DNA of 37,675 bases, taken from assembly GCA_008632985.1 (NCBI GenBank), contig QPGO01000055.1, forward strand, positions 186,001 through 223,675, in the 5' to 3' direction. The position numbers and the translations under genes are program-made. Source of the stretch: Psammoneis japonica (Eukaryota). Shown piece after piece: positions 11,983-37,675 of this stretch (positions within the stretch are counted from its first letter, which is position 1; every line of letters starts with the position of its first letter). The notes beneath the pieces are model-generated. The model worked only from the letters and a program-made list of their open reading frames with translations, was not told the origin of the DNA and ran no database searches.

Positions 11983-12312
11983 ATGTCAAAGACGGATGGA
12001 AAGTTTGATACAGAACCCGAAATTGCTGTAACCGCAGAAGCGGTACCAGCGGGAGGAGGTCAACAGGCAGGCAGCATCCCACCCGGGCATTCCCGCTTTT
12101 ATTGTGAAAAGTGCCGTGCGGTATGTTTTGGCTGTGTATTTCGAATTGCTGTATTGTACGCTGAAAGTAAACTTACCTTTATTCATTCTTTTTTATGAAC
12201 GTAATTGCAGCCATATGACTTACCAAACAAGGCCACAAGTTGGAGATGCTCAAACTGCTCGACTTTCAATTCGATTACTCCGGGAGAATGCGAATGGTGT
12301 TCTATCTTGTAG
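11983..12312 (+). CDS. 79-aa cysteine-rich zinc-finger protein with C-terminal CaaX (CSIL). Exons 11983-12120 and 12211-12312
   Basis: ATG in ccATG context; phase-0 intron GTATGT(12121)..TTGCAG(12210). The spliced product ends ..FYCEKCRAPYDLPNKATSWRCSNCSTFNSITPGECEWCSIL* (TAG 12310-12312). Confidence 0.85.
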
Positions 12313-12738
12313 AACGTTAACGACGTTTTGTCGTTTGTGGGTTCATTTGTTGAAAGGGCTTATTAGTACTTTGAGACTGTAGTTGATATGTTTGGTTTGA
12401 AGCAACCGTGTTCATGACCGTTTAAACTGGAGATACGGGAAAACGCGAAACAGAAGTGTGCAGTTTGCGTAGCGCTTTTATGCTAGAGAGTGGGATGGTT
12501 GAAGTATGGGCGGTGTGGTTGTCCGTTGTAGGAATTCAGCCCCCCTTTTTTAGCTGATTCTGTTATCGCGATATACTGTGTTTTCTTCAACTGTGATCTG
12601 TGATCTCTTTGTGAGTTTGCCTCGAAGGCTGGACTGCACTAACCGTTCATTCACAGTCACGAAATATTACAGATACCAGTATTGCTTTGACTAGCTTTAT
12701 CCTCGCCTCATTAGATATTTATGCTGATTTACACACCA

Positions 12739-13621: not shown

Positions 13622-14625
13622 GGTGGCTTTCGCTTCCTGAAGCAGAAAAAAAAATAACATAGGCCATACATGAGAAAAGAGAAAACGATTGGCAGCGCGC
13701 GCGCAGATGGCAGGTGGGCTGGCAGGTTCAACGCAGTTCAACAGGATGGACGGCGGCAGCGATGCGCGAAAGGCAGGACACGCGCGAGGAGAGCTCATCG
13801 ATGATGGGCGAGAAGAAGTTGGAGCGACGCCCCAGCAGCGAGCTCTTGTCTCGATGTTGCTGCCTCTTGTGGTTGCAATGCCAGTGGCTTGCCAGAGCTG
13901 TAGATGGTGCAATTCTCCCATCCCACCCACTGGTTTGGTTCTGGCTCTGGGCTCAGGCGGCCCCGGCCGATGTTGGAGAGCTTGGCGAGGGCTTGCTGGA
14001 GCTTGGGTGGGTGTCCCCAAAACCGCCACCTTCGATCTCCCACCTCAAAGACCACTGCACTGGTTGTAGGAACAGATGCATCAGACCAGCTTCAAAGCAT
14101 CTTTGGGATGGAGGTGCACGAGGTGCCAGGTGCTCTGCGAAGGGAGCCATTTCGTGCCGACCATCGGCGAAAACAAAAAAATTGTGTTGAGTTCATTGGC
14201 GCAACTGTTTGCATCATAAATTTCATGTTCATGGCTGAAGCTCAAACAAACAAGAAAGAGGAAAACAAAAATGGCAATGGCTTTCATCGGCCATGTCGGC
14301 CCCCTCTTTTGACTTTTGATGAGTTGAAGGGCATCATGAGGACCACAGCATTTGGCACAATTGATGTGCAAGCCATGCATGACAGCTGGCGATTGTTGCA
14401 GTCTGCGGCGCACTTGTGTGCTTCACCATGGTGACTGCTGCTTTCAGAGGCAACAGCCAGCCTCCCTTTGCAACCAATGGAGACCTGGACATTTAAAAAA
14501 CGGGGGACAGCCAGCGCACCTCGTGCAGGAAAAATCGAAAAGAAAACACAAAACATCAAAAGACACACAACATCAAGCAGTTGCAAGAAAGTCAGTTGAC
14601 AAACAACCTTGTCAGAGACAATGAG

Positions 14626-15031
14626 GACGGGTTCCAGTCCCAGCAGGTGGGATGTTTTGTGACATTCGGCCCGCAGAATTCTGCGTGCGAGCTCTGCAGT
14701 GCGAGAATTTAATCAATGCATGTTTTTGTCTTCAACATCAAATGAACGGCCAAGTTTGTAGTGCATTCATGCCTGTCCATGCTCAAAGTTTTCAGCAATC
14801 CGCCTGCCCTGCGCCATTCTTAAGATGTTTGCAAATGGCGCAGAAGAAAAAATGTCAAAAGTTGTTGAATGGATCGCCCAACAATTGCACTGCAAAATGA
14901 CACAAAATTCCACCAAAGTCACGCATGAATGATGCACTTGCGCAACATACGACGCGATCCAAAAAACTGCTGGGAGTGTCGATGTCACAGTTCAGCAGTG
15001 CGAGGTCCCACCTCCAGAGCTGGAATGCGTC
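14626..15031. mobile_element. Non-autonomous TIR element (MITE family A, copy 1, ~406 bp)
   Basis: Ends GACGGGTTCCAG..AGGTGGGA and TCCCACCT..CTGGAATGCGTC. Flanks TGAG (14622-14625) and CGAG (15032-15035) are a 4-bp TSD with one CpG transition. Colinear with 22685-22827 plus 25555-25804. Confidence 0.85.
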
Positions 15032-15035
15032 CGAG

Positions 15036-18000
15036 GTCAAAACGACTGCTGCATTGGAAATGCAAAGAAACAGTCATCAGCATTTCGCACTTGCGCCACA
15101 GGCTTGTGCACAAAATTGGCCTGGAGCCCAAAGGCAAGCCACATGTCATGTGCTTGTTCCACCATTTCAAAAGGATGAGTTGGCCATTTGTGACATCGCC
15201 GGTGCAATCTCTTTGTTTTTCCTGCTTGCACGTGACATTTGCACTCCCCCAACAACAAGAGGGCGGCCAAGACAAGCATGACAATGCTTGCCACCAACAT
15301 GAACGAGCACCCCTGCAATTGTGGTGAACCCCACTTGTCATCATGAAGCCTGCTCCGCCACCCACCACACCCATGCTCAACACCCATTCCAGTGCCGACT
15401 CAACCACCAACTGCACCATCATGCATGCCATCTGCAATGCAGAGTGATGTGCCCTCACATGTGCCAACCACGACTCCATCATCTGTGCCAAGCAGTGCAC
15501 CATTGTTGACAATGTTGGACACAGAAGATTGCTTGGAAACATGACCTTCGATCCATGGCAATGTCCAAATTCTTAACAAAGCACAAAGCCTGCTCCACAT
15601 GTCATGCATGGGACAATTGTGCTCCAAGCACAAAAGACAAATCAAGGCACATGGTTGCCACTTGCGCTGCTGCATCTTCCCAATGGCACGGGTCCGCTGA
15701 TGTGATTGCTGTTTCTGAGACAAGCCAGCTGGCATCAATGTGCAACAAATGAGTCGTCTCCACCGTGTGCCACACTGCAAGTGCACAATCTCTCTGCTGC
15801 AAAATGGCACACAAGTCATCAACCAACGCTCCATCTTTGTGGAGAACATGATCTCTGTGGCAGATGAAGCTGGGTTCTGATGTGTCATGCAGCAACAATG
15901 CAGCTGCCAGGATGAGACTGATGCAACAAACTGACAGTCATGGAGGTGACGCTGTTTTTTTTTTTTTAATCAGAATGTTGTGAATTTCTGTGCACCATGT
16001 GCTCTGTCCCACATTTTTTAAATGGCCAGGTCTCCATTTGACACCAAGCACCATGATTTCTTTTCCTTTGTCATGCAAGCCATTTTCCAGCTGTTGACTG
16101 GTGCAAGAGTTTCAGTCATTGACACCAAGAAAGCAGCAAAGAAGGGTCCAAAAAGTTCATGCCGTTGCAGTGCTGATGTTTTTCTTGATTCATCTGTTGT
16201 GCAATTTGTTGCCCAACGAGCATGCGGTGAAATGGCAAAACTGTTGAATTGCAAGCATCAAAATGCATGTGCAAAAACCACTCATTGTGTGCACCACATT
16301 GCAAAATTTACACAAAAGAACACTCATGTGTGTCACATGTCAGCACACTTGTGCAAACACAAATTGCTTGAGGAAAAATTGAGCTCTCATCTTGCACCAC
16401 CATTTGGCAACAACGGGTCCAAAATCAATCTTCAGAAACAATGATGTGGGCACACAAACGAGACTTTTCTGCATGTTGTCATGTCTGAATGTTTGAATGT
16501 CTCTGATTTTTCACTGCAAAAAATTGCACCACAAGTTTGGGCCATTTGTTTCATGTGCAACAATCTGGAGCAGCACTGCCAGATGATCCAGACAGGATGA
16601 GCTGTGATTTCTGCTGCAACTGGTGCTGGACAGAAACAACAGCAAAACTTCATTTTCTGCTTTGTGCTCAGCCCAGTCATGAGTGTTTTTGGCCCAGGAA
16701 GTTGCCCCTGATTGTCTTGGAATGGAGGGCATTGGGGGTCGTCTTTGATGTTGTGCATGAAAGCCCAGCTGACAGCGCCATTGCATCAATCCTGCTGCCA
16801 TGTGCATTGTGCATTTGAGCATCTTGCTTGCATTTTGTGAGGACATTTTTGCTTGTCTCCACACACAAACACACTCAATCATGGGTTTCTGTTGTCGTGC
16901 AATGCATCCTCATGGCTTGTGCATGTCTGGAATGTGGCCATTGCACTGGGACAAGCCTGCTGCATCACAACTCTCTTTGGTGCAGCAATGTGCACAGGCT
17001 GGTGTGGGCCAAGATTGGCTTTCTCCAACAACAATGTCAATCACTGTGTTGACATCACAAAAAAGAATTCCCCTTGCAGCGAAACTTGCACTGTGGCTGT
17101 GCAATCTTGAAAATTTGCTGAAAAGTCACTCTGAGCTCATTGCACTGCTGCAAGCTGCAGCAGCAACCTTGTTCTTCACAATGCTGTGAACAAAGTTGAG
17201 CTCAAAATCAAGAACACATCAGCACATCTTGAAGGTCTTGACCATGTTGTAAAGTGAAGCTGGCCCAAATTCATGGCCCCTCTCTGTGTCTTCTGTGTGC
17301 CCACTGTTGCTTGACCATGCAGCATTTTTTGCAATGGACCACATGACATTTTTTAAATGGCCCCTTTTTTGTGCATGTGACAGGCTGAGGTTTTGGCACT
17401 TGCCTGTGGAGGATGCCAAAAGGTGCAGAGTTTCTTTTCCCTGGTGGCTTCTCCTGCCAGTTCATCATGGCTCATTTTCTTCAGCCCTCCATGGCTGGGA
17501 CTCCACTGGCCTGCAGAATTCTGCCTGTGAGCTCTGCAGTTTGCACACTGGGCAACAAATCTGTTTGTCTTCCAAATCTGGACAAATGGCCAAGTTTGCA
17601 GAGCAGCCTCTTTGTGCTCCCAATTTTTGAAAATTTGCCTGCACAGCACCATTCTGAGCACATTTGTGAATGGCTTTGCATGCAAAAGATGTCAAAAATT
17701 GTTCAACAGATTGCCCAAAATGGCCGCACTGTAAAGTGAAGCAAAGTGCTGCCAACGTCACACACAGAAATGTGTGCACACAACATGCAGCAAAAGACAA
17801 ACAAGGGGCACAAATGTTGCAGCCAAGCAGGGTGAGGTGCACCCAGCAGAGCTGGAGCACATCACCTTCTGTGGCAAAGTTTGCAAGGTCTGGCTCATTT
17901 GACTTTGCAGATGATGTGCCAAGACCTGTGTTTGTTGGCATTTCAGGTGGCACAACCACTTGATGGGCTTGCAGTTGCAAAAAGACATTGAGCAGACATG

Positions 18001-21000
18001 TGTGCCGGGCCAGATCTTGATCTCAGTGGAGCTGATTTTGCACAAAGGGCTCATCCAATGGATGGAGGATCATCATTCAAAGCTTCTGTGACCAGCAAGT
18101 TGATTTGAATTGAGCTCATGGTTCCTGACAAAGCTGAGCTTGGCTCCAGCACATTGTGGTTGAGAGCTCAGATGAGCAGGGAGAAAACTCACTGCTGGGA
18201 CATGCTCTTGTTGCCCCTGCTGTTGATGGGCTTTCCACCTCATGACTTGTTTTGCATGAGATTTTTTGATTTTTTGGGTTGTGTTTTGCACATTTTAGCC
18301 AGCCCATTGTTCTCCCCTCTGTTGGCATCTTGGATGCATCAGAGAGGTGAAAAGGGGGGTCATGAATCATGGCCTTAATTTTCTGCGTGGACTTGGTGAG
18401 CGTGCGCCATCATTCATTGAGTTGACCCCTCTCTGGCTGAAGTGCATGGTCACTTGTTGGCAGTTGACCTTTGTTCATTTGTTTTTGATCTCTTTGTTTG
18501 TCTTGCATGTGACAACTGCCTCACAACAAATTGCATTTGTGACGCACATTGTGGCTTGAGTGCCGGCCATTGCACACCTGACCCCATCATTCATTGGCTG
18601 AAATCTCAGCTGCTTTTGTTTGGCAGAACAATCTTCGCTTCTGTTCAGTGATGTTTTTATGACTGCAAGCAACATTTCATGTCAATGGGAAGGGCAACTT
18701 GACCACAACTCAACTTGGTGCACTGCATTTGCCAGCTTTTGTTGAATTTCCTTTGTCCAACCCCCCCCTCCCCCAACTTGGTCCCAGCAGCAATCTTGCC
18801 CCACAAACTTTTCATTTTTGTGTTTCCTCTTGAGATGACAAGGCAAGATTCAAATGGCCTTTGCACAGTTGATTGATGTGCCAGCAGCCTGCATGGTGCC
18901 TTGCACTCATCACAGTGCATCTCACTTTGCCACCATCATGGCTGCATGCTGCACCCCCCCCCCCCCCCAAAAAAAAATGTCTCTGACCCCATCGACAAAT
19001 CTTCTGAAGGTGGGGATGGCAGCATTGAAGAGGATGATTCACTTCATGAGGATGAAGTGGAGTTGGGTTCCTTTCATGTGGAGTTGCAGCACAAAGCTGG
19101 CAGCATGGATTTGCTTTTGGAGATGATGAGTCTGGAGATCAAGGCCCATGTGGTGCCAGTGGGGACAGGAACAACTGTGATGTGCTGGTGCTTGGTTTGT
19201 TTTCCTGTTTTCGTCATCATGTCAACTTGATCATTTTCTGTTGATGTTCATCAGCTCTTGAGCACAACAATGATGAGATGGTGTTTGTGAGTGGCAGCAG
19301 CCACCATTGCAATGCAAAAGATTGGTTCAAAAGGACCACAGAAGTGCAGAAGACAAGGAGGTCTTTCCTTGCCTGCCATGAGCAGAGCCCAAGCCCTGAC
19401 TTTCTTGCACTGCCCTGTCTGCCGCAAAACCCCAAGAGAGGAATGCGCCGCTGTTTTGAGCAAGTGATTGCCATGAACAACACAACCAACAAATCCTTGG
19501 GATGCCAATGTGGGACTGCAAATCCCATGGTTGGATCTGCAAGCTGGAAAAGATGAAGGGAAATTTTGCTGGGCAGTTTGTTGTCCAGTGCCAGAAAGCT
19601 GCCAAGCCCTTTGACAACCTCCATGCTGTGGCAAGAGTTTTCAAGCCATGGTGGATTGTGTGCACAAGTTTGTCGAGCCCAAGTGCATCTGCAGCTGCAC
19701 AACTTCTCTTCAAAAGAATGGTTGCATTGCCAGCACCAATTTTCTTGCACAGACACTGAGCATTGCCATCTCCACAGTTGAGGCTCTCTTCTGCCATGTG
19801 TCACCAATGAAGAGACAGTTGCTGCTGCTGGTGCAAGTTGGTCTTTTTTCAATGTTCAAAGCCAAAGACTTTTCTCCTCACCATTGCCAACAATCTTCTG
19901 CAAGTTGCCTGTGCCGAAGCTAAAAGTTCTGTCTGGCAATGTCACAAAGAGCCTGTTGAAGCAAGGGCTGGGTGCCATTGAGGGTGCTGTTGCGTGCAGA
20001 GCACATGGTTGAAAAAGAACATCTCAGTGTCACAAGCTTGTGGAAGAGCAGATGTGCACAATGTTCCTTGGGACTTGCAAGAATCTCCAACAGAAAAAAT
20101 GAACAATCTTGCAACAGCCTGCTCCAGGGTTTGTGACTTGACCTGCTGATGCCTGAAGCCCAAGGAGAAAAAATGTTTGCCTCTTTGATGTGGATTGGTG
20201 TCAAGAGCAAAGGCAGAAAGATGGGCATTTTCCCAGCTTTGTCTTTTTTTCTCACGTGCCATTTCCCTTTTTGCTTGTCTCCTTTGTTCCTTTCACATTT
20301 TTTGGAAATGAGGTTCTCTGCCCCTGCTGCATGAACAAACATGGAGGGCGCACACTCTCCTTCCCTTTGCAACTGTGGTCCTTCTTCCAGCCCCGGGGCC
20401 AAATTCCCCACCCTCTCTCAACTTGTGCAGAACCTGGACAACAACAATGATGATGTGCCTGTTGCTGGCAATGAGTCCAGTGCCTTGTGGTGGCAGTTTG
20501 TTCTGAAGAGCCATCACAGGCATCCATTGCACTGGATGATGCTGATGTTTGGTTCCCACATGATTGTCAACACCCTTTCTCAACCCTGCAAGATGACCTT
20601 GCCAAGGTGGCTCCTTCTGTTCACACATTTTATGATGGGGTCGACAAAGATGGTGACATTGACAAAGATGCCAATGACCACAAGCTCATTTTTTGTCACT
20701 TGCCTTTGAACTTCCACCTGCTTGTGGACCTCCATGTTCTGACACATTCCTTTGAGTCTGCAGAGCCACTTCCCAAATCCAATGTGGCATGATTGGGAGC
20801 TGAGCAAGGTCTCTCCCAGAGCAACCAAGATTGCACCTGGTCAAACCACACTTTGTTCTGATGACAAGCTGTTCAAGAAGCATTTTTCTGGTCTCAAGTT
20901 TCATTTTGAAGAAGTTGCCCACTTTGTTGTGGAGCAGGGCACCATCAGCAATGAGGGAAGAGATGACAAAGTGGTCAAATTTCTGGAAGCCAACTCTCAA

Positions 21001-21844
21001 GCTGATTTCAGATGACAGCACATCAGAGCCATCCCCCTTGCATGGACTTGACATTTTTGAAACCAACAACAACAAAGAATCTCTTCTCCAAATGAAGGCC
21101 TTGACAGCCAACGCCTTTGATTGCACACAGCTTTGTCAGGACAAATTGTGAGTTGAGTGCTTTGATTTGTCACCATCGTGCAATTGTGAGGAGTGCTGCA
21201 CCCACAAGTTTGGTGAAAGAGCAAGGGAGAAACTTGGCATGGAGTTCACCAGAAACAAGAATTTTGCTCTCCAGCCAAAAAGACATGTTCCTTTTCTGCA
21301 TCATGCATGGTGTGTGTTGTCGAAGATGGGAATCAGAACGTCATTTTCTTCCTCTGTCATGGGGAGCTGGCATGAACAACGCTGCTGCCATTCATGCACA
21401 CACACTCCCCAGATGCCAATGAGATTGCATCTGCAGCAGAAAGAACCCCAGTGGCTGCAGACTCATTTGTGCAGTGGTCATGAGAAGCCCACAGAAGTCA
21501 GCAAACACACTGCTTGTTGGCATGCCCAAACACAGCATGACAGTCAACAGCACCAAGAAATCCAGCACAGTCATCAAAACAAGCACTGTTTTGCAGTTGT
21601 GTGACCACACTCTCATCTTGGCTGACATTGTGGCCATCAATCTACAAACAATCAGCCCCGTGGTGGGAGATGCGGTGTTTTTTGTTGCTCTGAGCATTGC
21701 ATGGGATCGCGGCGCAACTTTAAAATGTGTCACGTCATGCACCATGACAATGCTCAGCTCAGTGTGCAGAACATGGGGTGGTGATGTGCAAACCTCAAGC
21801 AACCTGGAGGTGGTGGCTGTCCAACCCACTCAAAGCAACCCAGG
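15036..21844. other. Heavily decayed, TpA- and CpG-depleted sequence, presumed transposon relics; no identifiable intact gene
   Basis: TA and CG are almost absent and TG/CA are abundant. All six frames are full of Cys/His/Met/Gln-rich, nearly Tyr-free short ORFs. The stretch hosts MITE insertions. Confidence 0.6.
17473..17863. mobile_element. Old diverged relative of MITE family A (left end approximate)
   Basis: Blocks colinear with 14626-15031: ggcctgcagaattctgcctgtgagctctgcagt, ggccaagtttgcagagca, gcctgcacagcaccattct, atgtcaaaaattgttcaacagattgcccaa, and terminal gaggtgcacccagcagagctggagcacatc. Confidence 0.7.
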
Positions 21845-22030
21845 TTCATCTGCGCACTCGCACGAAAATGCACCCCGGCTGCCGTCCATCGTACGCTGAT
21901 TTGCAACTCACACTTGCACCTCCATCGCACAAAAAAACACACCGCACCATGGTGCACGAACTTCGGAGGCCCACCACTCTATGACTGTGACGATTTGACA
22001 AGCGATGCTGTGTGGTCTTGTCGAGCACTG
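21845..22030 (+). repeat. Left terminal inverted repeat (TpA-eroded copy)
   Basis: ttcatctgcgcactcgcacgaaaatgcaccccggctgccgtcc...tttgacaagcgatgctgtgtggtcttgtcgagcactg matches the reverse complement of 31082-31265. Confidence 0.9.
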
Positions 22031-22827
22031 TCCTTGTTGTCCAGCTCCATGTTCTCCGTCCAACATGAGTGGTCGTGTAAAGAAAAAACGCCCATCTTCT
22101 TCATCATCACGATCACCCGCTGTTCCCAAGCGTCCTCGACATGATGTGCCCGCGGTGACGGAACCAGAGGGTTTGGAGTGCTCCAAGTGCAATGCATGGA
22201 TGCCAAAGATGCTGGGAACGCATTTCACAATTGGTTGTTTGAGAAAACATGGGATTTGTGTTGAATGCTTTGCGAGAGCATGCAGCGGTCTAGGAAAACA
22301 CAACAAACTGACATGCCCAAAGTGTGGCACCCTTTGTGCCAAGCATCAGAGCCATTCACTCAAATGCACTCTACAAGATGGAAAAGTGCGAATGCAAAGA
22401 AAGATGTCCATCCATGAAATGGCACAACCTGGCAAGAAGAGGGACTTCATTCGATGCTTTGAAACCGCACTCAAAAATCAAACTGGCTTGGCTGGTCTTG
22501 CCTTGGTCGGATGGAAAGACAGTGGCAAGCTTGATCTGCAAACTGTCATTGTTCCAAAAGACAATCCTTCAGAAATGGGAGACACCAATCAAAAGGATTT
22601 TTTCAAGCTGGTGAAACGTCTTCATTCAATTGTGGTCTACAGCGACTCGAACAAGACTCGGCGATGCGACCCGACGGCACACCCGACGGGTTCCAGTCCC
22701 AGGTGGGACTCTGTGTGACATTGGGCCCGTAGAATTCTACGTGCGAGCTCCGCAGTGCTAGAATTTAATCAATGGATGTGTTTGTCTTCAACATCAAAAA
22801 ATGAACTGCCAAGTTTGTGGTGCAATT

Positions 22828-25550: not shown

Positions 25551-25838
25551 AATTATGCCTCTTGCCACTCGACGTTTCTGCAAATGCGCCTGCCCTACGC
25601 GATTCTTAAGACATTATAGAATCGCGCTGTAACAAAAAATGTCAAAAGTTGTTGGACGGATCGCTCAATAAGTGTACCGTAAAATGACACAAAATGTCGA
25701 AAAAATCACGTAGAAATCTACGTGCGCGACATACGACGTGATTCAAAAAACTATCGATGTCACAGTTCAGTAGTACGAGGTCCCACCTAGACCTGGAACG
25801 CGTCACCCTGCTGATCGCGCACTTGCAGATCTTGCAAA

Positions 25839-26754
25839 GACTTGTTCCAGACTTAGGTGGCGCGCACATGCCCCTTTTCGCAGAAAAAATAATTTTTTAA
25901 TGCTTTATTCAACACCATACATATTTAATAAAATTGATCATATAAATGGCTTCTAAGTAAAATAAACAGAATAAACTCGAACAAACAAACAGCCAAACCG
26001 ACCATGGCTTTCAGTGACCATGACGGCCCACTTTTTTCAGCCTTATGGAAAATTGAATGTCATGACCAGGATCTCCGTATTTGATATAGTCTGTGTCATC
26101 AACAACAATAGTGAAAATGCTTGTTGAAGGCTGCAGCGCGGCACAATAATGCTAAATCTGTCAGCAACAACAATTGAGCCTCTATTCACTCACAATTTGC
26201 CTCTAAGGACCATTTCTTTTCTATTACCATGTATATTTCCTCAATATATTCGACTGATTCAAGTGTATCAATCGTTTATGCCTTTTAAACCGTGAAAAAT
26301 GGTCCGAAGTCGACGCCATTGCGTGGGCTGAGCTACACTTCTTCTCATGTCGTCCTAAACTTATTAATCAACGTATGCTTTATTCGATCCGTTGAGTGTA
26401 ACTCGTATTTACGTATATAAACAAAATATTAATTATGCTATGTTAAAGACTTAATTTATATATATTAATTTTATTTTATATGTTTCTTGTTACATTAAGG
26501 CATATATAAATCGCTCATCGGAAAATTCGAGCTCTCAACTTACGGTACAATTTAGCGACTAACAACCGAGTCCATCAACAGTTTCGAATACATGGGTACA
26601 CGCACAAGACAATTCTGTATGTACCCATAACAACACATTTGTAAATTGTTATGTTTTTACTCTATCGAAAATGGTACCGCAAGTGTGGACCGCGCGTTTC
26701 ATGCAAAAAGGGTCATTTTTTCGCGCGTGAGTGCACCCAAGTCTGGAACAAGTC
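25839..26754. mobile_element. Non-autonomous TIR element (MITE family B, 916 bp, AT-rich)
   Basis: 21-bp TIR GACTTGTTCCAGACTT(A/G)GGTG; TSD CAAA at 25835-25838 and 26755-26758. Its excision restores the host transposase frame. Confidence 0.92.
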
Positions 26755-29738
26755 CAAAATCAGACGACAGCTTTTTGTGCAACTTCATGTTCTGTCTCTC
26801 TCATGGGGAAACTAGAAAGGAAGTGGAGGAAAAGAAGGGTGAAACATTGGACAGCGGCGGATGGAACCGTTTGTTCAAAAAGGTTTTTGTTGCTGCTGAT
26901 GTCGTGAGGAGTGTGCGATGCTTGAACGCCAGCAGCGGCATCCTGCAGCCACCAGTTGGCTCACACTTGGCTGCTCAAGTTGCACCTGACAATCTCTCTT
27001 CTCTGCTTTCTGGATTTGGTCTTGTGACGACGAAGCACACTGAAAGGCGGAGGAACCAGAAATTCGCGGATCAAAAAATTCTTGAAGGGTTTGACTTCTC
27101 CAAAACTTTGAAGTTCGACTGCCTGTGTGACCAGCAAGACAACTGTGGACACAAAGTCCGTGGGGGGAAGAAGAACAAGGTTGGCTGTGTTCAAACAACT
27201 CAACAAGTGACGCTTCTGCATGGCCGAGAAGAAGCAACCGCAGACGGACTGTGCTGCAACCCGAAGAATCCAGACCGAGAGGCACTTGGCCGGGAGCCCG
27301 ACCACGATTTCGAATCAGAACGACAAATTGAGCACTTTGATTGCTGTGAAGCTGTGAAAGGCATCAATCAATTGGACAAGGAGCATCTGGCAAGAGCGCA
27401 ATTGGGGGCCATCAAGTCGGTTGTTGTTTGTAAATCAAAAAAGATGTGGCCGACTGCACAGGACGCAAGGATGATGCTGCGGACGGCGGGGTTTGAATGG
27501 ACAGGTGTGCCACACTGGAATGAAATGATGTCACGGGTGATGCTTGAAAATGCTGATTCGGAGCTGCATTTTTTGGAATCATCCATGACTGTGGATTGGC
27601 ACGAGAATGTGCATGTCGACGATGACGAAGACAAAACGCCTGGCGAAACGTCGACTTTTCCATCAGTCAACAAAGGACAAATGGGCATGCCACTTGACAC
27701 TAATTTTGCAAATGCTGCCACGCTGGAAAACATTGTCCAAACAGGTGAGGAGAAGCGAGAGGCGATTCTCGAGAAGTCGACCCTGACGGTTGATCGCAAA
27801 TGGGTGTCGGAGCAAGAGTCGCGGGGCATGGAGCCCCTTCATAAAGATTTTCCGGTTGCGTTTGGTGGGGATGGTGACCCGTGCATCAATCTATTCAAAC
27901 TCCGCCGTTTGAAGAGTCGTTCCGACTTTTGGGGCTGATCATTGTGCTGGGTGGATTTCATGTCATGCTGACGTGCTGGAAAGCGATCGGACGTCTCTTT
28001 GGTGGTGCTTTTTTGATCGATTTCTTTTCATTATGGCGAACCTCGGATGCCCAACTGAACTGGGTGCTAAACCCAGGGGACCCAGGAGCTGTTCTAAGAG
28101 AAACAAATACGATGGTGAATGCAATTTGTCTTTCTGCAACTCGGAAGTGCATCGAAAAGAGAATCAAAGAGTCGCAGGATGGGGCTTGCGAAGTTGAGGT
28201 GTCGGCCGTTGACGTCCTGGACCACATCATCGAGCGAGCAGAAGAGTACCCGATGATCATTTTGATTCTTGCGTGGCTCCGTATCTATCATGTCATACAG
28301 ATGCTGCAGTCCGCAGAAGTGACGGCGTCTGTGTCTCTGTTTCTGTCAGCTTTGAAGCTTGTATCCTTGTATGTTGTGCTGTCTCATCACACAGGATACG
28401 TGTCGCTTATAGCCGACTTTCTAACTGATTGGTGGTGCTCATCACCGGCACTGAAGAAGCTCATAGAGAAAGCGATCTTGTTCAGAAAAACAATCAATGG
28501 GAAGTTCACATATGCCGATAGATTCATGGAATGGATCATCCGTGACGAACGCTACTATTTTGGGGATTATGTCAACGGCACTGTGGACAATCATTACAAG
28601 CAGTGCCGAACAATGGCGATGACGCTAAACACCAGTCTTGCGGTAAAGGGGGCTACAAAGCGAATGGCAAGTGGTCAGCCAAGGAAGCTGGCGCTCATTG
28701 ACAAAGTGTTCTGTGAAACTTTGCTGTATATTGATGATTTGAATCTTTTTGGGGACGGTCCGGTTCAAAAAGTTCCAGCGCGTCCATACTTGGAACGGCA
28801 CGAACATGATCATGCAGGTGACTGGGAGGAAGTGTCGGTCGGGGAGTGCGTCAGCCCATCCGGTGTGGCACTCAACACTGATGCTTGCTTTGGTTTGTCA
28901 AAGTCAGAGATTATTGATAGAGATTTTTTTGATTGTTTCTACACGGAGGCGGAAGATTTGAATGACCCCAGGAGACCCGAGGGTGAGGGTGGAGTGGATC
29001 TGTCGGTGCTGGATCCGCTTAGGAATGCTGACAGTGCTCAGTTTGAGCTAGAAAGGAAGCGTCTAGTGTCAACGGATGCCGCATACTTAATGGAAAAGGG
29101 CGTCTATTTAGCAAAGGAGGCAACGGCTGAAATAGGAAAGCTCAAGGAGGAGCTGCGGAGGTACTACAACGAGGGGAAAATTGACAAAGAGTTCTTTAGG
29201 AGTATAAAGAAATCAGAAACGGTGCGGATCGTTGATGCTGATGGCCAAGCTAGGGTGCGTACCATCCAGAACAAGACTTTCTCCATTGGTGTTATTGTTA
29301 AGGCAAGAAAGAAGCTCATGGAGCTAGATGCAAGCTGGAGTGACAATCGCACAAATGTATAGATGAAAGTCGAGACGCTTGGACGATCGCCCGCAATGAG
29401 GAATTCCAACCCAGGCTGAAAAATGAACTGAAGCACGATCTGTACACGTTTAAGCATACTGAGACAAGGGAGGAGTTTAGTACTAATTCTATACAGTTTA
29501 TCTTGTCTGGAGGAGCGGACGAGAGCGACGACGAAGCGGTACTACTGTCGCAGACGTCAGAAGGACTAGGAAAGCGGCATGCACCGTTTTCCCCTCAAGG
29601 GTTAAGTCAACAGTCACAGTAACTTTGTAGTTCTACAATAAGGATTTTGTACTTGCAAAAGATTGCTATACTACAAGTATCATATGCATTTACGTCTCGC
29701 CAATCACTATCAATACTCCGTGTCCGAGGAACTCACGA

Positions 29739-31028
29739 TCAATCATCAATGTCCGAGTCATCGTCTGAGGTATCATCCTCCTGGACCTCTTCATAGGATC
29801 TAGGCTTTGTCTTTGGCTCCTCGCGCTTGGAATAGTGCTACCCAATGAGATCAGCAACCTCTTTCGAAAGCGTTGAATCCGGATTCTTCAGCCTCCCCCC
29901 CACAATCGGAATCGCCATGACGTGTTTTTCTCGCTCCGACCGTTCCGATGACCTGAACGCATTGGAGTATGCTACCATACACTTTTTTGCTCCCTCCTTT
30001 GATGAAGCTAGAAAGTATAGAAATGGTTTGTTGCATCGCTGGTAAGTAGGTTGGCCACCGCTTGTCTTCGTCTGGTACAATTCACCGAATACGAGATGGA
30101 CAACATGAATTCCCGGCTGGTTATTTGAAAGGTCAGGATACCGGACTGTGTCAATACAATGTGCCACTCGTTTCAATGATGAATGTATTGCTCTCATTGA
30201 GGTTGTATCAACTTGTTGATATACATTCCTCGCGTTTTCTCCGCTTTTGTGCTTCTTCTTTCGCGGCCCTGCTTCATCAACACCGACCAGCTCTCGTCGT
30301 TTACTGTCACTAGAAAATAGGCTGACATTCTCATTCCTGGTGTGAGATTGAGAAGAGCGACGGTCTGATATGTGATTGAGACTATTGGAAGGACTGGGAC
30401 CGGTGTTGTTTGCAAATAGGGCGTTGTTGAGTTCCCGCAACAGCCCAACAGCTTTGGGCTCCTTGTCGCCGCTTCCGTCGCTAGCCGCGGCCGAAGTCGA
30501 TGGTGTTGAGCCACCTGATACTGCAGGGACACTCCCTGTTGATCTCAAGGCTTCTCCTGGAGGACTGTTAGTTGTTGGGCGACTGGAATTGGTCGGAGGA
30601 GGCGTGACAGAACGCGCAGGGGGGGGTTGATGATGGATTGCCGGACGTGCACCTTGAGATCCCGCCAAAGCCATTTTCGTACGAAGCAAATCTTTTTGTT
30701 GAGTCAAATTATCGATATTCTTCTTGTATAGATCCCTCTCCCAACGCTGTGCATTAGTAAACTTCAATCTCTCGAAATCACGGTGATGTTTGTCGAGCGT
30801 GATAAAATCCTTGATTTTCCTGTCCACGATTCTAAAGTCCTTGGAACAACCCGTGACTGATCTCGGGAGCGCTACTGAAGACCCCAACTTGCCAATATCG
30901 GGGTAAACGTTTGCTATTGATTTTGTATCACTCAAATCGAGCTTCAGTAGCTTCGATTGAAGTTCCATCGAGTAGCTGATAGATAATTCGACATGAAAAT
31001 CGTCCGACACTTTGGTGGTGCAATTCAT
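29739..31028 (-). pseudogene. Second ORF of the long-TIR element (~430 codons, unknown function) with an in-frame TAG at 29838-29840
   Basis: The 399-aa ORF has normal Tyr content, a coiled-coil-like stretch, a Pro/Ser linker and a basic PRKKKHK motif. The frame continues past the TAG as HYSKREEPK..EDDTSDDDSDIDD to TGA 29739-29741. First ATG is at 31028. Confidence 0.7.
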
Positions 31029-31081
31029 AGTGAGCAACTGACGAAAATCAAAATTTCAACCAATGATCACATACGTCGTAG

Positions 31082-31265
31082 TAGTGCTCGATAAGACCAC
31101 ACGGTATCGCTTGTCAAATTGTTATAGTTATATAGTGGTAGGCCTCCGAAGTTAACACACCACGGTGCGGCGTGTTTTTTGTGTCGGATGCAGAGGTGTG
31201 AATTTACAAATCAGCGTACGACGGACGGTAGCCGGGGTGCGTTTTCGTGCGAGTACGCAGATGAA
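31082..31265 (-). repeat. Right terminal inverted repeat (TpA-intact copy)
   Basis: The reverse complement reads ttcatctgcgtactcgcacgaaaacgcaccccggctaccgtcc...tttgacaagcgataccgtgtggtcttatcgagcacta. Confidence 0.9.
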
Positions 31266-34070
31266 GATGTTGGGGTTCTTGGTTTGCCAAAATCAGGTGA
31301 TTTTGCCAAATCCAACCAGTCATCCACCCATGTTGTTGACAATCCACCATTGGACAGCCCCACACAACTTTTGTTTCCAACAAATGCAGCTCTTATGGAA
31401 AGGATTCATTGCTCTTGCATTGAGCATTTTGTGGATTGTGTGCAAGGGATTGCAAGCAGCTTTGACAACATGGTTGGTTTGTTGTCCTCAAACTCATGCT
31501 GTGCAAGCTGGGCATGCTGCAGCAGCGGCTGCATTGGTGTGGAAAGAACAGACATTGCTGACACTCACTTGGTTGAAAAATTCTCATGTGGTGCCAGAGT
31601 TGTCACAGAGTGCAATGAGCTCAAGAGAGGTTTCATCTGCCAAGGTGAAGCTGTGCTCCATCAACAAAGAGAAAGTGTCCTCATGTGGAACAGATGACTC
31701 AGGTGATGATGCAGAGCTCTCTTCATTCTTGGATCCCAAAGCATGAGAATTGTCAGCACCTGGAAACATTTCACACTTCGCACAGACAGGCACCATTGTC
31801 TTTTTTGTCTTCTTCTTTGGACTGAGAGCCACCTTGGTCACATTCATTGTTGTCCAAGCTGTGAGATGCATCATCCTGCAAATCCATGTCAGGAAAATCA
31901 CACAAGCCTTCTGCCTCTTTGCCAAGAGGCTCAAGGCTGCCATGGGGGAACCAGCACCAGCAGCACCAGCAGAAGTTTTGTGGGGAGTGCTGACACCATC
32001 ACACGCAAGTCACAGGATGATGGAGACAATGCCTCAAGCTCCCTTTGGCAATGAAGAAGCAGAGCTGCAGCATGGGACAGCACACCCAAATCAGCTGAAG
32101 ATGCATCTGCACAACTGGCGGCATTGGGCCTGCAGCCCATGGTGATGACAGCAATGACAATTCATGCATTGCCGTTGAAGTGGGAGGGGGGGCAAGATTG
32201 GCACAAATGAGCGGGAACTTGTTCAAAGTGACTGTGCCAATTTGCTTGAATTTTGTTTGTTGAGCAAGTGCTGGCATTGACCAAAAAAAAATGTGGCTTG
32301 CCAATGGAAATGCAGACAGAGCAAGAAAGGCAGTGTCAAGGGTGTTTGTCATTTCTGGAGTGCACACATTCAGCAATGCACAGCTGTGTTTTCCAGATCA
32401 GAAGGAGCGGTGTGTGGGAAATCAGATTTGCAATGGTCAACCCAGCCAGACATGTGTGACATCACCGCACAACCCACGACCATCACCACAGCTTTGCAAA
32501 AAAAAAAACACCACACAAAAAACAATGGCAACAAAAACATGACAACCACAGCACAGAAGCAAATCAACCTGGCCAAGTGAATGGCCAACAAGGACAAGAA
32601 CAAAACCCAAATTCTTTGTTTCAAAGTGCTGCTGTGCACTTCCAACCTGCAGCTCCGGCAACAAGCTGACTCACACCCCCAGCACATTGTGTGATGCAGC
32701 AGGGATTTGCAACAACCAGTCAAGATTGATGCCACAAGGCTGTGGTGCCCACCAGCAACAGCTGGCAGCAACAAAAACAGGACCTGCAAAGTTGGACTTC
32801 AAAAGCAAGTGCTTGGCACTGCAGCAAGGCCTTCTTCTTGGGATCAGATCTGGTGGCTGAGACAAAATGGGCAGTCTGGAAAAGTTTCAGAATGAGGAAG
32901 AGCAGGACACAAATTGACCACCAAGTCATGCCAAGCTGGTTTCAAATTCAGACTTTTGGGAGCAGCAAAAATGGAGAGCTGTTTGCTGCATGGAGCAGAG
33001 AACTTGAAAGGACAGCTGGTGGGAGGGGAGTCATTGATGCCAGAGATGAATGAACTGAGAGCAGTCAACAGTTTGTCAAGTCAATCATCTGAAATGACCT
33101 TCAAGACACAAGGAAAATGTGCTGCAACTCATGTGGATTTGTTGGCACATGGAAGAAAAGCCAACGCATGCTGAATTGGTCTAAAATGCAAACTCTTTAG
33201 AGCAGCAACAATGGAAGATTGTTGGCCACCTGAAGTGGGGAACGTGAGTTGACAACAGGCAGGAGGGGGGGGGTGTTGACACTTGAGAGGTGTGCAGATG
33301 GAGCAGTCAACAGTTTGGCAAGTTGTCCATCTGGAATGACTTGCAGAACACACAGAATTTGGGCTGAAACTTGTGTGGAAACTTTGCACATGAGCAGAAA
33401 AAATGCAGAGAAGAAAGCCAAGCAAACAAGCCAAAAAGGCTCAACAGTGCCAGCCATGTTCCACTGCATTGGATTGCCAATGATCACAGAACAAAGGCAC
33501 ACCAACAAAGAAATGGTCTGAATGGGCAGGTGGAAACCATTGTCACATCATTGGAGAAAGGCAATGTCTTGCGCAAACAAACATGCAGAAGGTGTGGCTG
33601 TGAAACCAAGGCAAAATTGTGGCCGATTGGGACAAGGGGCTGGGCCATGACATGATCAAGGCAAGAGACCACATTAAAGAAAAATGTGCATGACACTGGT
33701 GTTTGATGCAAGGCAAACACAGGAAGTGGGCATGCTGTGCAAAGACTGTGCCCAGAACTGTGGGCTTGCACTGATGGACAGGATGCTTTCAGAGCTTGCA
33801 GAGGTGCAACAAACTTCACACCTGCAGCTCCCATGGACAAAAATGAAACAAGGCAGGTTGCGTCAGGAGTGGCCAGTGCTGAAGTGATCCAATGCTTGTC
33901 AGGCTCAGCAGGACAGATTTTGCAGAAAGTGTGCAAGTGTGCATGACACATGTCACCAGCAGGTGGTCAGAAACACTGACGTTGTTGTTGTGTCTTACAT
34001 GGCTGCGCAGGGCTTTGTGCTTGCTGCAAAAAAAATTGCATCTTGCCATTGCAACAACAACTCCAGGAGC
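31266..34070. other. Heavily decayed TpA/CpG-depleted presumed transposon sequence
   Basis: TA and CG vanish abruptly right after the TIR; only fragmentary Tyr-free ORFs remain. Confidence 0.6.
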
Positions 34071-34074
34071 ATTT

Positions 34075-36797
34075 AAGACTGGCCACATGAAAAGGTGCTG
34101 ACGCGCGCTCTCGAGCTCTCAAAATTTGTTTCGAGAAAATGGCACTTGCAAGATTTTTGAGCGATGTCAAACAATTAAAGTGTTGACATAAAACATTGCA
34201 CAAAATTCATGTGCACACAAGGACTGCCACCAATTTTTATTTGCGTCCCTCTCCGAAAGAACTGCACTGGCTTTGGCGGTTTTCTTTTTCTTGTTTCGCG
34301 CCATCTGCTCAGCGCTCTCCACCTGCTTGTTCTTCCGCTTCTCTCTCTTGCTTTTCGCAACGCGATTGAGGACGTCGTCTCCAGGATGAGGGCACATCTT
34401 GTCTTGGTCTGCCTTGTCAAGAAGCGGCCGACACTTGGCACAAAGCTCGACCTTCTTGACATCCTTGACACCTGGAGCTGTCAAGGCAAGTGGTTGTGAC
34501 GTTTGCAAGTTCTGTTTTCGTTGCTCGCTCGATTCTGTCTTCCTCTTCTTGAGATCCTCGCTAACTTCTGGCTCGCCGTCCGCTGCTTTCATTGTTGCTG
34601 CCGCAGGTTCCGAAGAATCTGTCACTTCAAAGCAGTGGTGCTTCGCAACTGTGCTGCACTTCTTGTGATGTTGGTCAAAATGCACTCCATGCCCCACAAA
34701 ATCCTCCTCCTTCGCTTCAACGACCTGAACGCACTCGGAGGTGTCCAAGGCTGTCAAGAGTTTGCGGAACGTGCCGATGTTCTTGTCACGGCAAGTTTGC
34801 TTGAGGCTGTTGAAGAGCCTGTCACAGGCATTCTTGGTGTGCCCTTTTGTCAAAAAAACAATGCTCACTTCTTTGAAACATCCTTGTTCCACCAGGTGAG
34901 AAGCAAGTCTCAATGCCGTGTTGTTTTTGTTTTGCCCGATGCAGTTGTCAAAAATCAATGCGAGCTTTCCGCCTGGACCCTCACTGACATCCAACAATCC
35001 ACCATCATGTGAGTGCTTCATCACAAGGGAAGCAACATTGTCACCTCCCTTTTGGCCAGCACCCTCATGGCAGACGCATGCATGCAAAAAATCCTTGAAC
35101 TCATCTTCCGTCACCGTCACAACTTTTTTCCCCGCAGGATTGGCAACCCCAAACATGTTGATCGTCAAAGGAGAGAAGTGGTGCGTCTCCCCTGGCTGAT
35201 CCGCCCCAAAATGTGGAAGCCCACCATTTTGACAACAGTCACCAATCCTTGCGTAAGTTCGCTCGCCGTGTGCCTTGTCGGCTTTTGCGTGTTCCATCGC
35301 TTCCGAAATGTGCTGTTGCACGAGTGTCCGTTGCTTTCGAGCCCACTCGACGTGCTTTGCGGCGTGTGATGTTTCATTTTCCTGTTCTTCAATCTCTTTC
35401 ATTCTCACCTCTGCATCTGCTCCATCTTCTTCATCATCATCGCTCTCCTCCTCCTCATCCTCGTCGTCGTCGCTCTCACCCCCCGTCTTTTCTTTCATCG
35501 CTTTCATCCTGAAGCCATTTGTGAACTTGTGGCATTCGTCGCAGATGTCACGAGTGGGCCTTCTCACGACAATTTCAGGACAGTTCTTTTTCCAGAACTT
35601 GCAAAATTGTGCCCAGGAGCACATTGGTTGCTGGTCTTCTCCTTCGATTGGTTCCGCCTTAAGAAACTTGCCTTTGTGGTTCGATTTGAGGGTCCAACCA
35701 TTTTCTTGTCCGCACCGTTTGTGTGATCCACGCTTTTTCACGGTGGGAGGCAAGTCGTGTGTGTCTTCATCTCTCAAGCCGACACCTGTCTCTTCTCTAA
35801 CCAGTCTCATTGCACGTGGCTCAGAAAGTTCCTTCATGTCATCAAAACATGCGTGAAGGGCTGCATGCATTTCGGGTGCAAGCGTCTTGTTCGCGTTCTG
35901 CCCAGTCTTCCCTTTGAGACCATGTTGCGGAAAGACACTGCTCTTTGCACTCAACTTGGCGGTTCTCCAGAACTTTCTCCCTTTGCCTGGCAATGCAAGG
36001 AGGGCACTGCAGCAGACCAGATGATCGTCCGGCGGCGTCCCCTCCTCCGCCTCCTCCTCGTCGTTGTCGTCAGTTTTCAACAGCGGCAAAAACAAAGCAG
36101 CGACAATCACCCTTGCATGCGTGCTTCTGAATGAAAGTAGAATGTTTGATCCAGGATGTAAAAGCAGCATGTGTTTCTGTGCACTCCAGTCTTTCAAAGC
36201 ACACGAGGCAGCTGCTCAACATTTTCACGATGGAGGTGTCGTTGTTCTCCAACATTGCTCTTAGCTTCTGCAGACACTGACATTTCGCAGGTTTCTTTGT
36301 GGTTGCCTGGATGCAATGTTCATGGAAAATGGGGGACTCGCCAGGGTCGGAAAGCCAATCGCAGAACTTTTCTGCCGCCTCATCGTCCTTGACGCCTTTG
36401 GTCAGTTTCAGCCGCGCCATTTTTTTTGTGACGCTTTTGCTTTTGCTCTTGTTGCCTCCACCAAGAGAATTTCAAATTCGAACCTTATGTCAAGTGCTCA
36501 ACAATTTGTGCAGACTTGCACAATCTTAAAAATCATGTGCTTTTGTGCAACTTGTGTGCGTGACTTTCTTGGCATGTCATTTCGCGCAATTCCTCAACGG
36601 TCAAAACACTCACAGTGAACAATTCAAGCCGTTAATTTAGTTTGTGGCCAACAAAATGTCAAGGAAGCATTGCCAGCCATTGACACATGCATCGCTGAAG
36701 AGCTGAGATCAAGAGCTTTCAATCAGCATCCACACCTCAAAATCGACCACACGAGCTGTTTCGAGCTCCGTTGGCACCTTTCCATGTGGCCAGTCTT
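34075..36797 (-). mobile_element. Sola1-type DNA transposon, copy 2 (2723 bp)
   Basis: Colinear with copy 1 (offset 11246-11247). TIRs AAGACTGGCCACATG(A/G)AAAGGTGC. Left TSD ATTT (34071-34074), right GTTT (36798-36801). Flanks differ from copy 1. Confidence 0.92.
34167..36420 (-). pseudogene. Sola-type transposase, copy 2, with a +1 frameshift at ~36090 and read-through of the copy-1 stop position
   Basis: ATG at 36420 (MARLKLTKG). cggcAAAAAc versus cggcAAAAc in copy 1 splits it into ORFs 36070-36420 and 34167-36197. Same catalytic motifs as copy 1. Confidence 0.9.
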
Positions 36798-36801
36798 GTT
36801 T

Positions 36802-37675
36802 GTTGAACCTGACATTGCATGTGGTGTTCTGCAGCCACCTGTTGAAACTGGTGCCAGAGAGAATTGTTGGAAAAAAGAGCCTGTCTGATGACACAAAGAT
36901 GGGCACATTGTGTGCTGAAGCATTTGCCCACATGCTGCTGAAGAACAACTTTGATGCATGGCATGCAGAGCACAAGAGCAACAGCAAGGACAGTGCTTTG
37001 GTGCCAGACTGTGTGATGCGGAGGTTGACAATGAAGGCAACCCCACCAGAAGGAAGGGCTTGTGTGAATTTGTTGTGCCAGAACTGGCAGTTGCAGAGCA
37101 CAAGGATGCCAACAACGGCTTGAGCACATTCACATTGTTGGAAAAAGGCCCAGGAGAGCCTGCAGAACAAGGAGTGGTGCAGGAGCCAATGAACAAGTTC
37201 AAGGAGGAGAGGGAGAAGTCTTGCAAGAGTCACAACAAGAACATCAAGAAGGTGCAAGTGGAGCAGAAGACACAGGAGCACATGTCCATTTTGATGGAAG
37301 TCACCAATGAACTGGAGAGCAGCACAAGGGGCTGCCAGGCAAGGAATGTGGTGCCAAGAAGAAAATGTGCATGAGATGACTGAAGCACTTTGCAGCAAGG
37401 AAATCCAGCAGAGCAGGGGAAGGTGCAGCCAGAAGATGATGCAAGACACCCAGGAAGAGCAGGGGGGCAGTCACCACAGGCAAACAAGTTCTTCAAGGAG
37501 CTGGGTTTGGAGATCAAACAACATGTTGCAAGTGAACAACCAGGCCAGCAGGAGGACATGTTTGAGAAGATTGCACAGCAAGCTGCAGAAAGCAACAGGA
37601 GGGTGGGAACAACAAGTCCAACAGCAAAGGCAAGCATGTGGTGGACTGTGCTGAGGTGCACAAACTGAAGTTGAT
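36802..37675 (+). pseudogene. Decayed coding relic, probably a transposon accessory ORF, into which Sola copy 2 inserted
   Basis: Frameshifted protein-like fragments EAFAHMLLKNNFDAW, KFKEEREK..KKVQVEQK and GGQSPQANKFFKELGLEIK. TA is essentially absent. Confidence 0.4.

Follow-up and report, generated by a model that had tools for sequence, protein, structure and literature searches.

The window analysed here, a stretch of 37,675 nucleotides of Psammoneis japonica contig QPGO01000055.1, carries about 19 kb of transposon-bearing DNA in which the dinucleotide step 5'-TA-3' (TpA, or TA) is nearly absent, directly adjoining ordinary genes. We consider it very likely that this DNA underwent real, in situ, TpA-specific hypermutation of the kind reported for the chlorarachniophyte alga Bigelowiella natans. 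The fuller account, a genuine and locally confined TpA hypermutation of that kind with the chemistry and targeting proposed below, is in our judgement the probable explanation. The comparisons showed a mutation rate far above background, specificity for TpA, and independent mutation of separate copies. They also showed, as read from aligned sequences, that TA had been changed to TG or CA by real mutations falling on either strand.

TpA loss in mobile DNA beside host genes

An initial annotation of this DNA had claimed that TpA is depleted over transposon DNA and normal in the host genes, and the counts bore this out. Delimited by the positions of TA, the depleted blocks extended over 13668-25270, 26814-27842 and 31266-37675. 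Together they contained 64 TA in 19,042 bp (3.4 per kb) versus 781 in 18,632 bp of normal DNA (41.9 per kb); at the normal density, 798 TA would be expected in the blocks (Poisson P ~1e-250). In 1-kb windows, the observed/expected ratio (O/E) of TA was 0.00-0.17 over 14-25, 27-28 and 32-37.7 kb, where the ratios of TG and CA rose to as much as 2.0-2.25. It was 0.45-0.69 over 1-14 kb and 0.45-0.77 across the normal windows taken together (1-14, 25-27 and 28-31 kb). Over the blocks as a whole, the O/E was 0.05 for TA, 1.69 for TG and 1.68 for CA. The TA ratio of host genes and intergenic DNA was 0.59, and their lowest 500-bp window still reached 0.25. The longest runs free of TA measured 1788, 1263, 1038 and 1012 bp.

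The balance of dinucleotides indicated how the missing TA had been replaced. Pyrimidine-purine steps were conserved: normal DNA had 237.1 of them per kb, and the blocks had 239.9. Per kb, the blocks had lost 38.5 TA and 30.7 CG and had gained 30.5 TG and 41.5 CA, and they look as if TA and much of the CG had been rewritten through transitions. Neither AA nor TT was depleted (AA O/E 1.31 in the blocks and 1.18 in normal DNA). Within the blocks TG and CA were equally common (105.5 and 105.3 per kb), and the strands were symmetric. The loss of CG, which the initial annotation had not described, was uneven: its O/E was 0.18 in the oldest part (11,449 bp) as against 0.79-0.81 in the transposon copies. 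Pooled over this old domain, the ratios were 0.03 for TA, 0.18 for CG, 1.88 for TG and 1.84 for CA.

The boundaries of the depleted blocks were sharp. The last normally spaced TA on the gene side lay at 13667, and 47 bp separated the block edge from the putative start codon of a host gene for the mitochondrial pyruvate carrier (MPC). Host intergenic DNA, for which the initial annotation had raised the possibility of an equal TpA loss, was normal (10815-13027, 48.8 TA per kb). A VPS13-like host gene, with a TA O/E of 0.45-0.66 in 1-kb windows, is an internal control with normal TA.

Sharp boundaries were also found between and within mobile elements (Table 1). These comprise an element bounded by terminal inverted repeats (the TIR element); element X, which resembles a miniature inverted-repeat transposable element (MITE) and is present as copies 1 and 2; and a transposon whose transposase belongs to the Pfam family DUF7869, present as copies A and B. 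Copy A, which is nested in X copy 2, was free of TA from about 22842 to 25273, its last 280 bp retained 10 TA, and the X sequence flanking it was normal. Copy B, which lies in the old domain, was TA-free through both ends. With X copy 2 taken out, the left 1.9 kb of the TIR element (21845-22636 and 26755-27842) was TA-free and the right 3.4 kb (27843-31265) normal, the three pieces having in order TA O/E values of 0.11, 0.03 and 0.61.

Direction, independence and context of the changes

The direction of change was read from homologues of the DUF7869 transposase. The search yielded 67 relatives at identities of up to 49%, the best full-length match being at 38%, and 36 of them, picked by rank and coverage, were aligned as an outgroup. 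Tyr was conserved (in at least 60%) in nine columns, and copies A and B both carried His or Cys at all nine, with His and Cys found 8 and 10 times, respectively. Other conserved residues were kept: Phe at 11 and 10 of 12 positions in the two copies, Trp at 3 of 3, His at 5 of 5 and Asn at 10 of 11, and Cys and Asp largely so. The Tyr content was 0.16% in copy A and 0.30% in copy B; the homologues averaged 3.8%, and none fell below 2.3%. Judged from the alignment, the Tyr codons TAY evidently became CAY or TGY.

Comparison of the two copies indicated when the changes occurred. Across 2722 aligned bases there were 135 differences, all of them transitions, of which 122 lay within pyrimidine-purine steps and 13 outside. 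No transversion was found among them, and background mutation since the copies separated is therefore very small relative to two dinucleotide-specific processes. TG in one copy stood opposite CA in the other at 42 sites, TA opposite TG or CA at 14, and 9 TA were shared. Because 119 CpG were intact in both copies and only 24 of 143 CpG sites differed, an origin from CG is excluded for the 42 sites. If concordant double hits are assumed to be as frequent as discordant ones, the number of TA in the ancestor comes to about 107, and this figure of 39 per kb matches normal DNA; nearly all of the loss therefore followed separation and was independent in each copy. On the same assumption, the per-site rate was estimated indirectly, from copy divergence, to exceed background about 800-fold at TA and about 37-fold at CG.

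Pairs consisting of one depleted and one normal paralogue (the ends of element X and the two TIRs) pointed in the same direction. TA had become TG or CA 20 times versus 1 (P 2e-5), and CG had become TG or CA 12 times versus 3 (P 0.035). X copy 1 had TG or CA at 12 sites where copy 2 had TA, and the reverse at 1; the left TIR had TG or CA at 8 sites where the right TIR had TA, and the reverse at none. The paired examples cited in the initial annotation (four TIR pairs, one MITE pair and one pair of transposon ends) were all present in the sequence. Its proposal that TA changes to TG or CA on either strand, confined to mobile-element DNA beside normal genes, is upheld by the Tyr columns, the copy pairs and the paralogues.

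The low TA content did not extend to relatives of the transposon. Eighty metagenome loci of the transposase family had TA O/E values of 0.26-0.91, with a minimum of 0.165 in any 500-bp window, and the family at large is not TA-poor. An outgroup that was itself free of TA, which the initial annotation had named as a possible objection, was thus not what these loci showed. Within the genome itself, other copies of the transposon, recovered in contigs of a public run (run X1), keep TA at 25156, 25252, 25256 and 25265, where copy A has CA or TG. Run X1, in which a depth of about 60 corresponds to single-copy DNA, may be the source sample of the window. The lowest of the 80 metagenome loci, L070 (1570 bp; O/E of TA 0.26, TG 1.47 and CA 1.37), is a mild case and might come from a different organism in which such a process is at an early stage.

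The few TA that survived were not a random sample. Of the 64 surviving TA, 19 were TTAA, whereas normal DNA had 40 among its 781 (odds ratio 7.8, P 5e-9); for TTTA/TAAA the figures were 31 of 64 versus 122 of 781. The blocks retained no ATAT and a single copy each of ATAC, ATAG and GTAC. TTAA and the junctions of T-tracts with A-tracts were spared. Among 124 polarised events, the 3' neighbour had no effect on the strand that was hit, the next base being A in 26 cases for the mutated A and in 30 for the spared A; the whole duplex site therefore matters. A simple TAB motif was dropped, since the strand hit is not decided by the 3' neighbour. No clustering of strand choice along the transposon was found (22 runs versus 21.95 expected). 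At two positions adjoining the 26814-27842 patch on its right side, 28033 and 28109, the window has TA and run X1 has TG, a hint that activity near these positions is possibly ongoing.

Known systems and competing explanations

The initial annotation knew of no description of such a process; a preprint of 2026 on B. natans provides one. In mutation-accumulation lines of B. natans, two viral inserts mutated at about 1000 times the genome rate; A-to-G or T-to-C changes made up 230 of the 231 new mutations in these inserts, and every one of the 230 fell on TpA (Mettrop et al., bioRxiv 10.64898/2026.01.13.699255). The preprint also describes 124 TpA-poor clusters in the genome that are rich in CpA and TpG and enriched for transposase and reverse-transcriptase domains, reports intermittent activity in that only some lines mutate, and gives the authors' proposal of an ADAT2-like deaminase (bioRxiv 10.64898/2026.01.13.699255). 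The window resembles B. natans in its exclusive transitions from TpA to TpG or CpA, in having foreign or mobile DNA hit beside a normal genome, in long-term TpA-poor, CpA- and TpG-rich stretches associated with mobile elements, in targets at single-copy depth (for the window at a likeness of at least 88%), and in a rate about three orders above background (for the window an indirect estimate of about 800 times, from copy divergence).

The two cases also differ in several respects. B. natans is a chlorarachniophyte, and hence a rhizarian, whereas the window is diatom-like (stramenopile); the targets there are a giant-virus/virophage insert, and here transposons and an unrecognisable block. Depletion in the window is near saturation (TA O/E 0.03) versus 0.45 in a B. 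natans viral insert. The sparing of TTAA, the parallel decay of CpG, the symmetry between strands and the timing by nested insertion are absent from the main text of the preprint, in which the words TTAA, flanking, trinucleotide, CpG and diatom occur 0 times. A TpA hypermutation process is thus already known from one unrelated alga; the diatom-like, saturated, transposon case and the constraints on mechanism are new here. A search of the openly accessible literature turned up no account of diatom transposons losing TpA. In the accessible text of a mutation-accumulation study of Phaeodactylum, an ordinary GC-to-AT bias is described and the words "transposable" and "hotspot" occur 0 times (PMC6604790).

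Among longer-known processes, repeat-induced point mutation (RIP) of fungi shares with the window wholesale transitions in mobile DNA, the destruction of coding capacity and a dinucleotide signature. Fungal RIP, however, changes C to T mainly at CpA and creates TpA, whereas in the window TpA is destroyed and CpA and TpG are created. It also needs duplicated DNA and a sexual cycle, whereas copy number was not predictive in the window, at a likeness of at least 88%. CpG decay through deamination of 5-methylcytosine likewise removes a palindromic dinucleotide to TG or CA on both strands of silenced DNA. It is present in the window as well, as an additional and slower signature (about 37-fold above background, compared with about 800-fold for TA); it acts on CG and cannot remove TA. 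The initial annotation was therefore correct that neither process explains the loss of TA. APOBEC3 and ADAR offer a parallel in hypermutation as a defence against genetic parasites, but APOBEC changes C and is strand-asymmetric whereas the window is symmetric, and ADAR acts on RNA and is less strict in context whereas the window holds a DNA transposon in chromosomal DNA.

In our reading, the duplex step 5'-TA-3' is converted to TG or CA by an A-to-G change on one or the other strand. The process acts on silenced mobile or foreign DNA of the nuclear genome and leaves genes tens of bases away untouched, and here it has run nearly to completion. In the oldest DNA it is overlaid by ordinary CpG-to-TpG/CpA decay of the kind caused by cytosine methylation; the parallel loss of CpG suggests, from base composition, that cytosine methylation may occur in the same domains. 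A deaminase-fold enzyme would turn adenine into hypoxanthine in double-stranded TpA, and what recruits it would be the silencing of a locus or RNA derived from the element instead of copy number. U33-A34 is the context always met by tRNA adenosine deaminases of the TadA/ADAT2 type, and because the invariant 5' T mirrors it, adenine deamination of that type is the leading candidate chemistry, one that we hold tentatively. On whether targeting follows chromatin or RNA and not homology, our opinion is evenly divided.

A bolder version, which we regard as speculative and rather unlikely, is that diatoms and chlorarachniophytes share, by descent within the stramenopile-alveolate-rhizarian (SAR) group or by gene transfer, a dedicated nuclear system that recognises TpA as a palindromic duplex step and deaminates adenine on either strand, with RNA from the elements possibly guiding it to mobile DNA that is transcribed or silenced. 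In copy A, the presumed transcript body falls within the mutated tract, and the 280 bp on the promoter side and the flanks are untouched. If this version were true, there would be a natural, targetable editor of A:T to G:C in double-stranded DNA, and a second RIP-like defence with the opposite chemistry in major marine algae.

Several points weigh against the proposed account. Its chemistry and targeting are inferred from sequence, by which A-to-G cannot be distinguished from T-to-C on the partner strand. A deaminase that worked strand by strand under a simple 3'-neighbour rule would not account for the sparing of TTAA. The contrast between the mutated copy A and its normal flanks can also be read as mutation elsewhere followed by transposition. 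Run X1, which may derive from the source sample, does not provide a fully independent check by reads. Finally, the argument from single-copy depth is limited to a likeness of at least 88%, and copies of an old repeat, once saturated, might differ by about that much and so have escaped the count.

The strongest alternative, which we consider unlikely, is a homology- or repeat-induced process, RIP-like with the opposite chemistry, in which duplicates above a length threshold would be paired and mutated and the old domain would be a former repeat whose copies have diverged or been lost. Both linked 2.7-kb transposon copies are mutated, and a depth of 508-969 versus about 60 suggests that the DUF7869 transposon has about 8-16 genomic copies. 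The unmutated X flanks, for their part, are short elements, and in the old domain the depth was about double that of single-copy DNA in some bins, namely those of 15.7-17.7 kb (128.7-136.9) and 21.0-21.7 kb (131.8). Against this, the strongest block, 17.7-21.0 kb, had a single-copy depth of 59.5-66.4, and 27008-27674, inside the 26814-27842 patch, had 71.1 (the bin 26341-27007, which includes the left edge of the patch, had 2155.7); these counts cover sequences of at least 88% likeness and leave more diverged paralogues uncounted. Element X, the most abundant family, had a summed depth of 23,000-42,000 versus about 60 (29,000-42,000 over 25.0-26.3 kb), which implies some hundreds of copies, and of its two copies in the window one is depleted (14626-15031) and the other, copy 2, keeps normal TA (O/E 0.68-0.79). 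The hypermutated giant-virus insert of B. natans is also single-copy (bioRxiv 10.64898/2026.01.13.699255). Within this limit of likeness, copy number did not predict mutation, and the term "repeat-targeted" used in the initial annotation is not supported.

A slightly less probable alternative is that thymine is the target, the T in TpA being modified, for example to 5-hydroxymethyluracil or further, and then mispairing or being repaired to C. Read off sequence, the outcome would be the same as that of A-to-G, and dinoflagellate DNA has 5-hydroxymethyluracil in place of thymine, with a preference for TpA and TpC. However, nothing in the window supports a modified T, such bases normally still pair with A, and no such base in diatoms turned up in the literature, in which no search was aimed at it.

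Error-prone synthesis or repair by a polymerase of the Pol eta type, changing A to G at WA motifs and recruited to these domains, had been named as a candidate in the initial annotation and is very improbable. TA is one of the two WA motifs, but the other, AA, was not depleted in the blocks, and only 13 of the 135 differences between copies lay outside pyrimidine-purine steps. In this small sample, an excess of AA-to-AG/GA changes, which such a polymerase would leave, was not seen. A-to-I editing of double-stranded transposon RNA by an ADAR-like enzyme, copied back into DNA, is more improbable still. ADAR enzymes favour a 5' U and also edit after A and C, and the mutated tract of copy A corresponds roughly to the presumed transcript body. 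The inverted terminal repeats and target-site duplication, however, mark a DNA transposon, which has no RNA copy stage; the specificity for TpA is nearly absolute, in contrast to the relaxed 5' neighbour of ADAR, with AA undepleted; and non-coding, unrecognisable DNA was hit equally.

An artefact of sequencing or base calling on modified DNA, with TA really present, is equally improbable. The blocks would plausibly be heterochromatic and modified, and run X1 is possibly not independent of the assembly. The X1 contigs nevertheless reproduced the TA-free sequence at a depth of about 60 in pieces of 1-3 kb, with 5 differing letters over 15921-16906, 6 over 16963-18943, 9 over 18986-22189 and 5 over 31301-32748. 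None of the 16 old-domain differences among the 40 listed of 358 restored TA, and 8 of them were CG versus TG or CA. Adjacent genes on the same molecule were normal, and in B. natans the mutations were identified with Illumina sequencing (bioRxiv 10.64898/2026.01.13.699255). The base-calling artefact considered in the initial annotation was thus not apparent in these contigs, with the proviso that the sample may be the same.

Inherited or selected avoidance of TA, with elements arriving TA-free or escaping a TA-cutting nuclease or UpA-directed RNA decay, could appeal to the 9 residual TA shared by the copies versus 14 found in one copy only, but is already contradicted by the 42 TG-versus-CA sites that need independent loss after separation, the destruction of invariant Tyr residues in the catalytic region, the normal TA of the 80 outgroup loci and the TA kept elsewhere in the genome at the positions given above. 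Two further candidates were rejected outright: a bisulfite-like artefact, which would raise TA, and GC-biased gene conversion, as GC was not raised (0.48 in the old domain and 0.48 in host DNA).

A saturated, diatom-like example of TpA hypermutation would show that the process is not peculiar to chlorarachniophytes and that it reaches ordinary transposons beyond viral inserts. It would also open a route to the enzyme, in that genes common to both lineages and missing from relatives without TA-free blocks become candidates. From the window, such an enzyme would be one that acts symmetrically on duplex DNA and does not travel processively along a strand; it would leave TTAA and T-tract/A-tract junctions alone, and its action would end no more than tens of bases from an active gene. 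To our knowledge, no natural A-to-G enzyme for double-stranded DNA has been characterised, and one would be of interest for base editing.

Anatomy of the window

Table 1. Features of the 37,675-nucleotide window, in order of position. ORF, open reading frame.
Feature	Position	Strand	Remarks
VPS13-like exons, host gene	3..10814	+	Pfam VPS13_M, VPS13_VAB and VPS13_C on consecutive ORFs; weak to borderline scores
MPC, first coding part, host gene	13028..13621	-	Pfam MPC, E 2.5e-24
Old TA-free, CG-poor domain, part 1	13668..21844		Contains element X copy 1
MITE-like element X, copy 1	14626..15031	+	Aligns to 22685-22838 and 25575-25804; TA O/E 0.15
TIR element	21845..31265		~185-bp inverted repeats, 21845-22029 and 31083-31265
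Element X, copy 2, long form	22637..26754		Inserted in TIR element; carries DUF7869 copy A; TA O/E 0.68 and 0.79
DUF7869 transposon, copy A	22828..25550	-	Pfam DUF7869, E 1.9e-20; nested in X copy 2
TA-free patch within TIR element	26814..27842		2 TA in 1029 bp; TA O/E 0.03, CG 0.82
Old TA-free, CG-poor domain, part 2	31266..34074		TA O/E 0.00-0.06, CG 0.11-0.14 in the 32 and 33 kb windows
DUF7869 transposon, copy B	34075..36797	-	95% identical to copy A; in old domain; dead ORF 34167-36197
Old TA-free domain, part 3	36798..37675		Reaches window end; no TA from 36638 on (1038 bp)

The DUF7869 transposon is 2.72 kb long, with ends AAGACTGG...CCAGTCTT. Copy A has inverted ends and a 4-bp flank duplication, AATT on each side, and holds a dead transposase ORF at 23272-25173. 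A joint from 22826 to 25557 in contigs of run X1 represents its empty site. The initial annotation had labelled the element Sola. Pfam places the transposase only in DUF7869; Sola elements are characterised by a DDE transposase of their own clade and a 4-bp target duplication.

Element X occurs in the window in a short form of 406 bp and a long form of about 1.4 kb, the latter measured without the nested transposon. Copy 1 is an empty site for the DUF7869 transposon. Joints from 22636/22638 to 26755 in run X1 contigs correspond to a TIR element without X copy 2. The TIR element contains long ORFs of normal composition at 27878-29362 (+) and 29838-31055 (-). Pfam searches of three of its ORFs at E values up to 10 found no family. 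A protein atlas gave a weak lead from the TIR-element ORFs to animal DUF6589 clusters (scores 0.92-0.96, low recognition), which Pfam did not support.

The old domain was scanned as ORFs. No Pfam family scored above the cut-off in any of 59 ORFs, of which 54 came from the stretches 13.7-22.7 and 31.1-34.0 kb. The 42 ORFs of 13.7-22.7 kb gave two chance-level matches below it, RPOL_N (E 0.0089) and Leg1 (E 0.0076). At 32921-33401, two adjoining units of about 240 bp are 68% identical. In TA-free DNA (13668-25270 and 31266-37675), TAA and TAG occurred at 1.8 and 0.7 per kb per strand versus 10.2 and 9.1; long overlapping ORFs are therefore open on both strands, and the summed six-frame ORF cover was 2.68 per base versus 1.69. 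Gene finders would be expected to over-call false ORFs in such DNA. The MPC reading frame likewise continues for 136 codons 5' of its likely start, into TA-free DNA.

The MPC gene was also compared with its relatives. A homologue search returned 654, the best at 56-77% identity and none close to 100%; the reference genome of B. natans, whose own proteins should have matched at about 100%, is therefore not the source of the window. Among the 120 listed, 5 bore an organism name (Cyclotella cryptica, Cyclotella cf. meneghiniana, Thalassiosira profunda, Stephanodiscus triporus and Detonula), and 6 of 10 clusters looked up were named Synedropsis, Trieres, Licmophora, Stauroneis, Conticribra and Thalassiosira. 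All eleven named organisms are diatoms. Judged by these named homologues of a single gene, at identities of no more than 77%, the window most likely belongs to a diatom or a close relative. The open frame in the window has 198 residues versus 260-300 in diatom homologues, and the remaining coding part probably lies in a further exon at 12.2-13.0 kb (gene span 12200-13621, minus strand). For the VPS13-like exons, a homologue search gave only 2 matches at 28-31% identity, of no help in placing the organism. The host intergenic DNA contains a 66-bp direct repeat with 83% identity (11651-11785).

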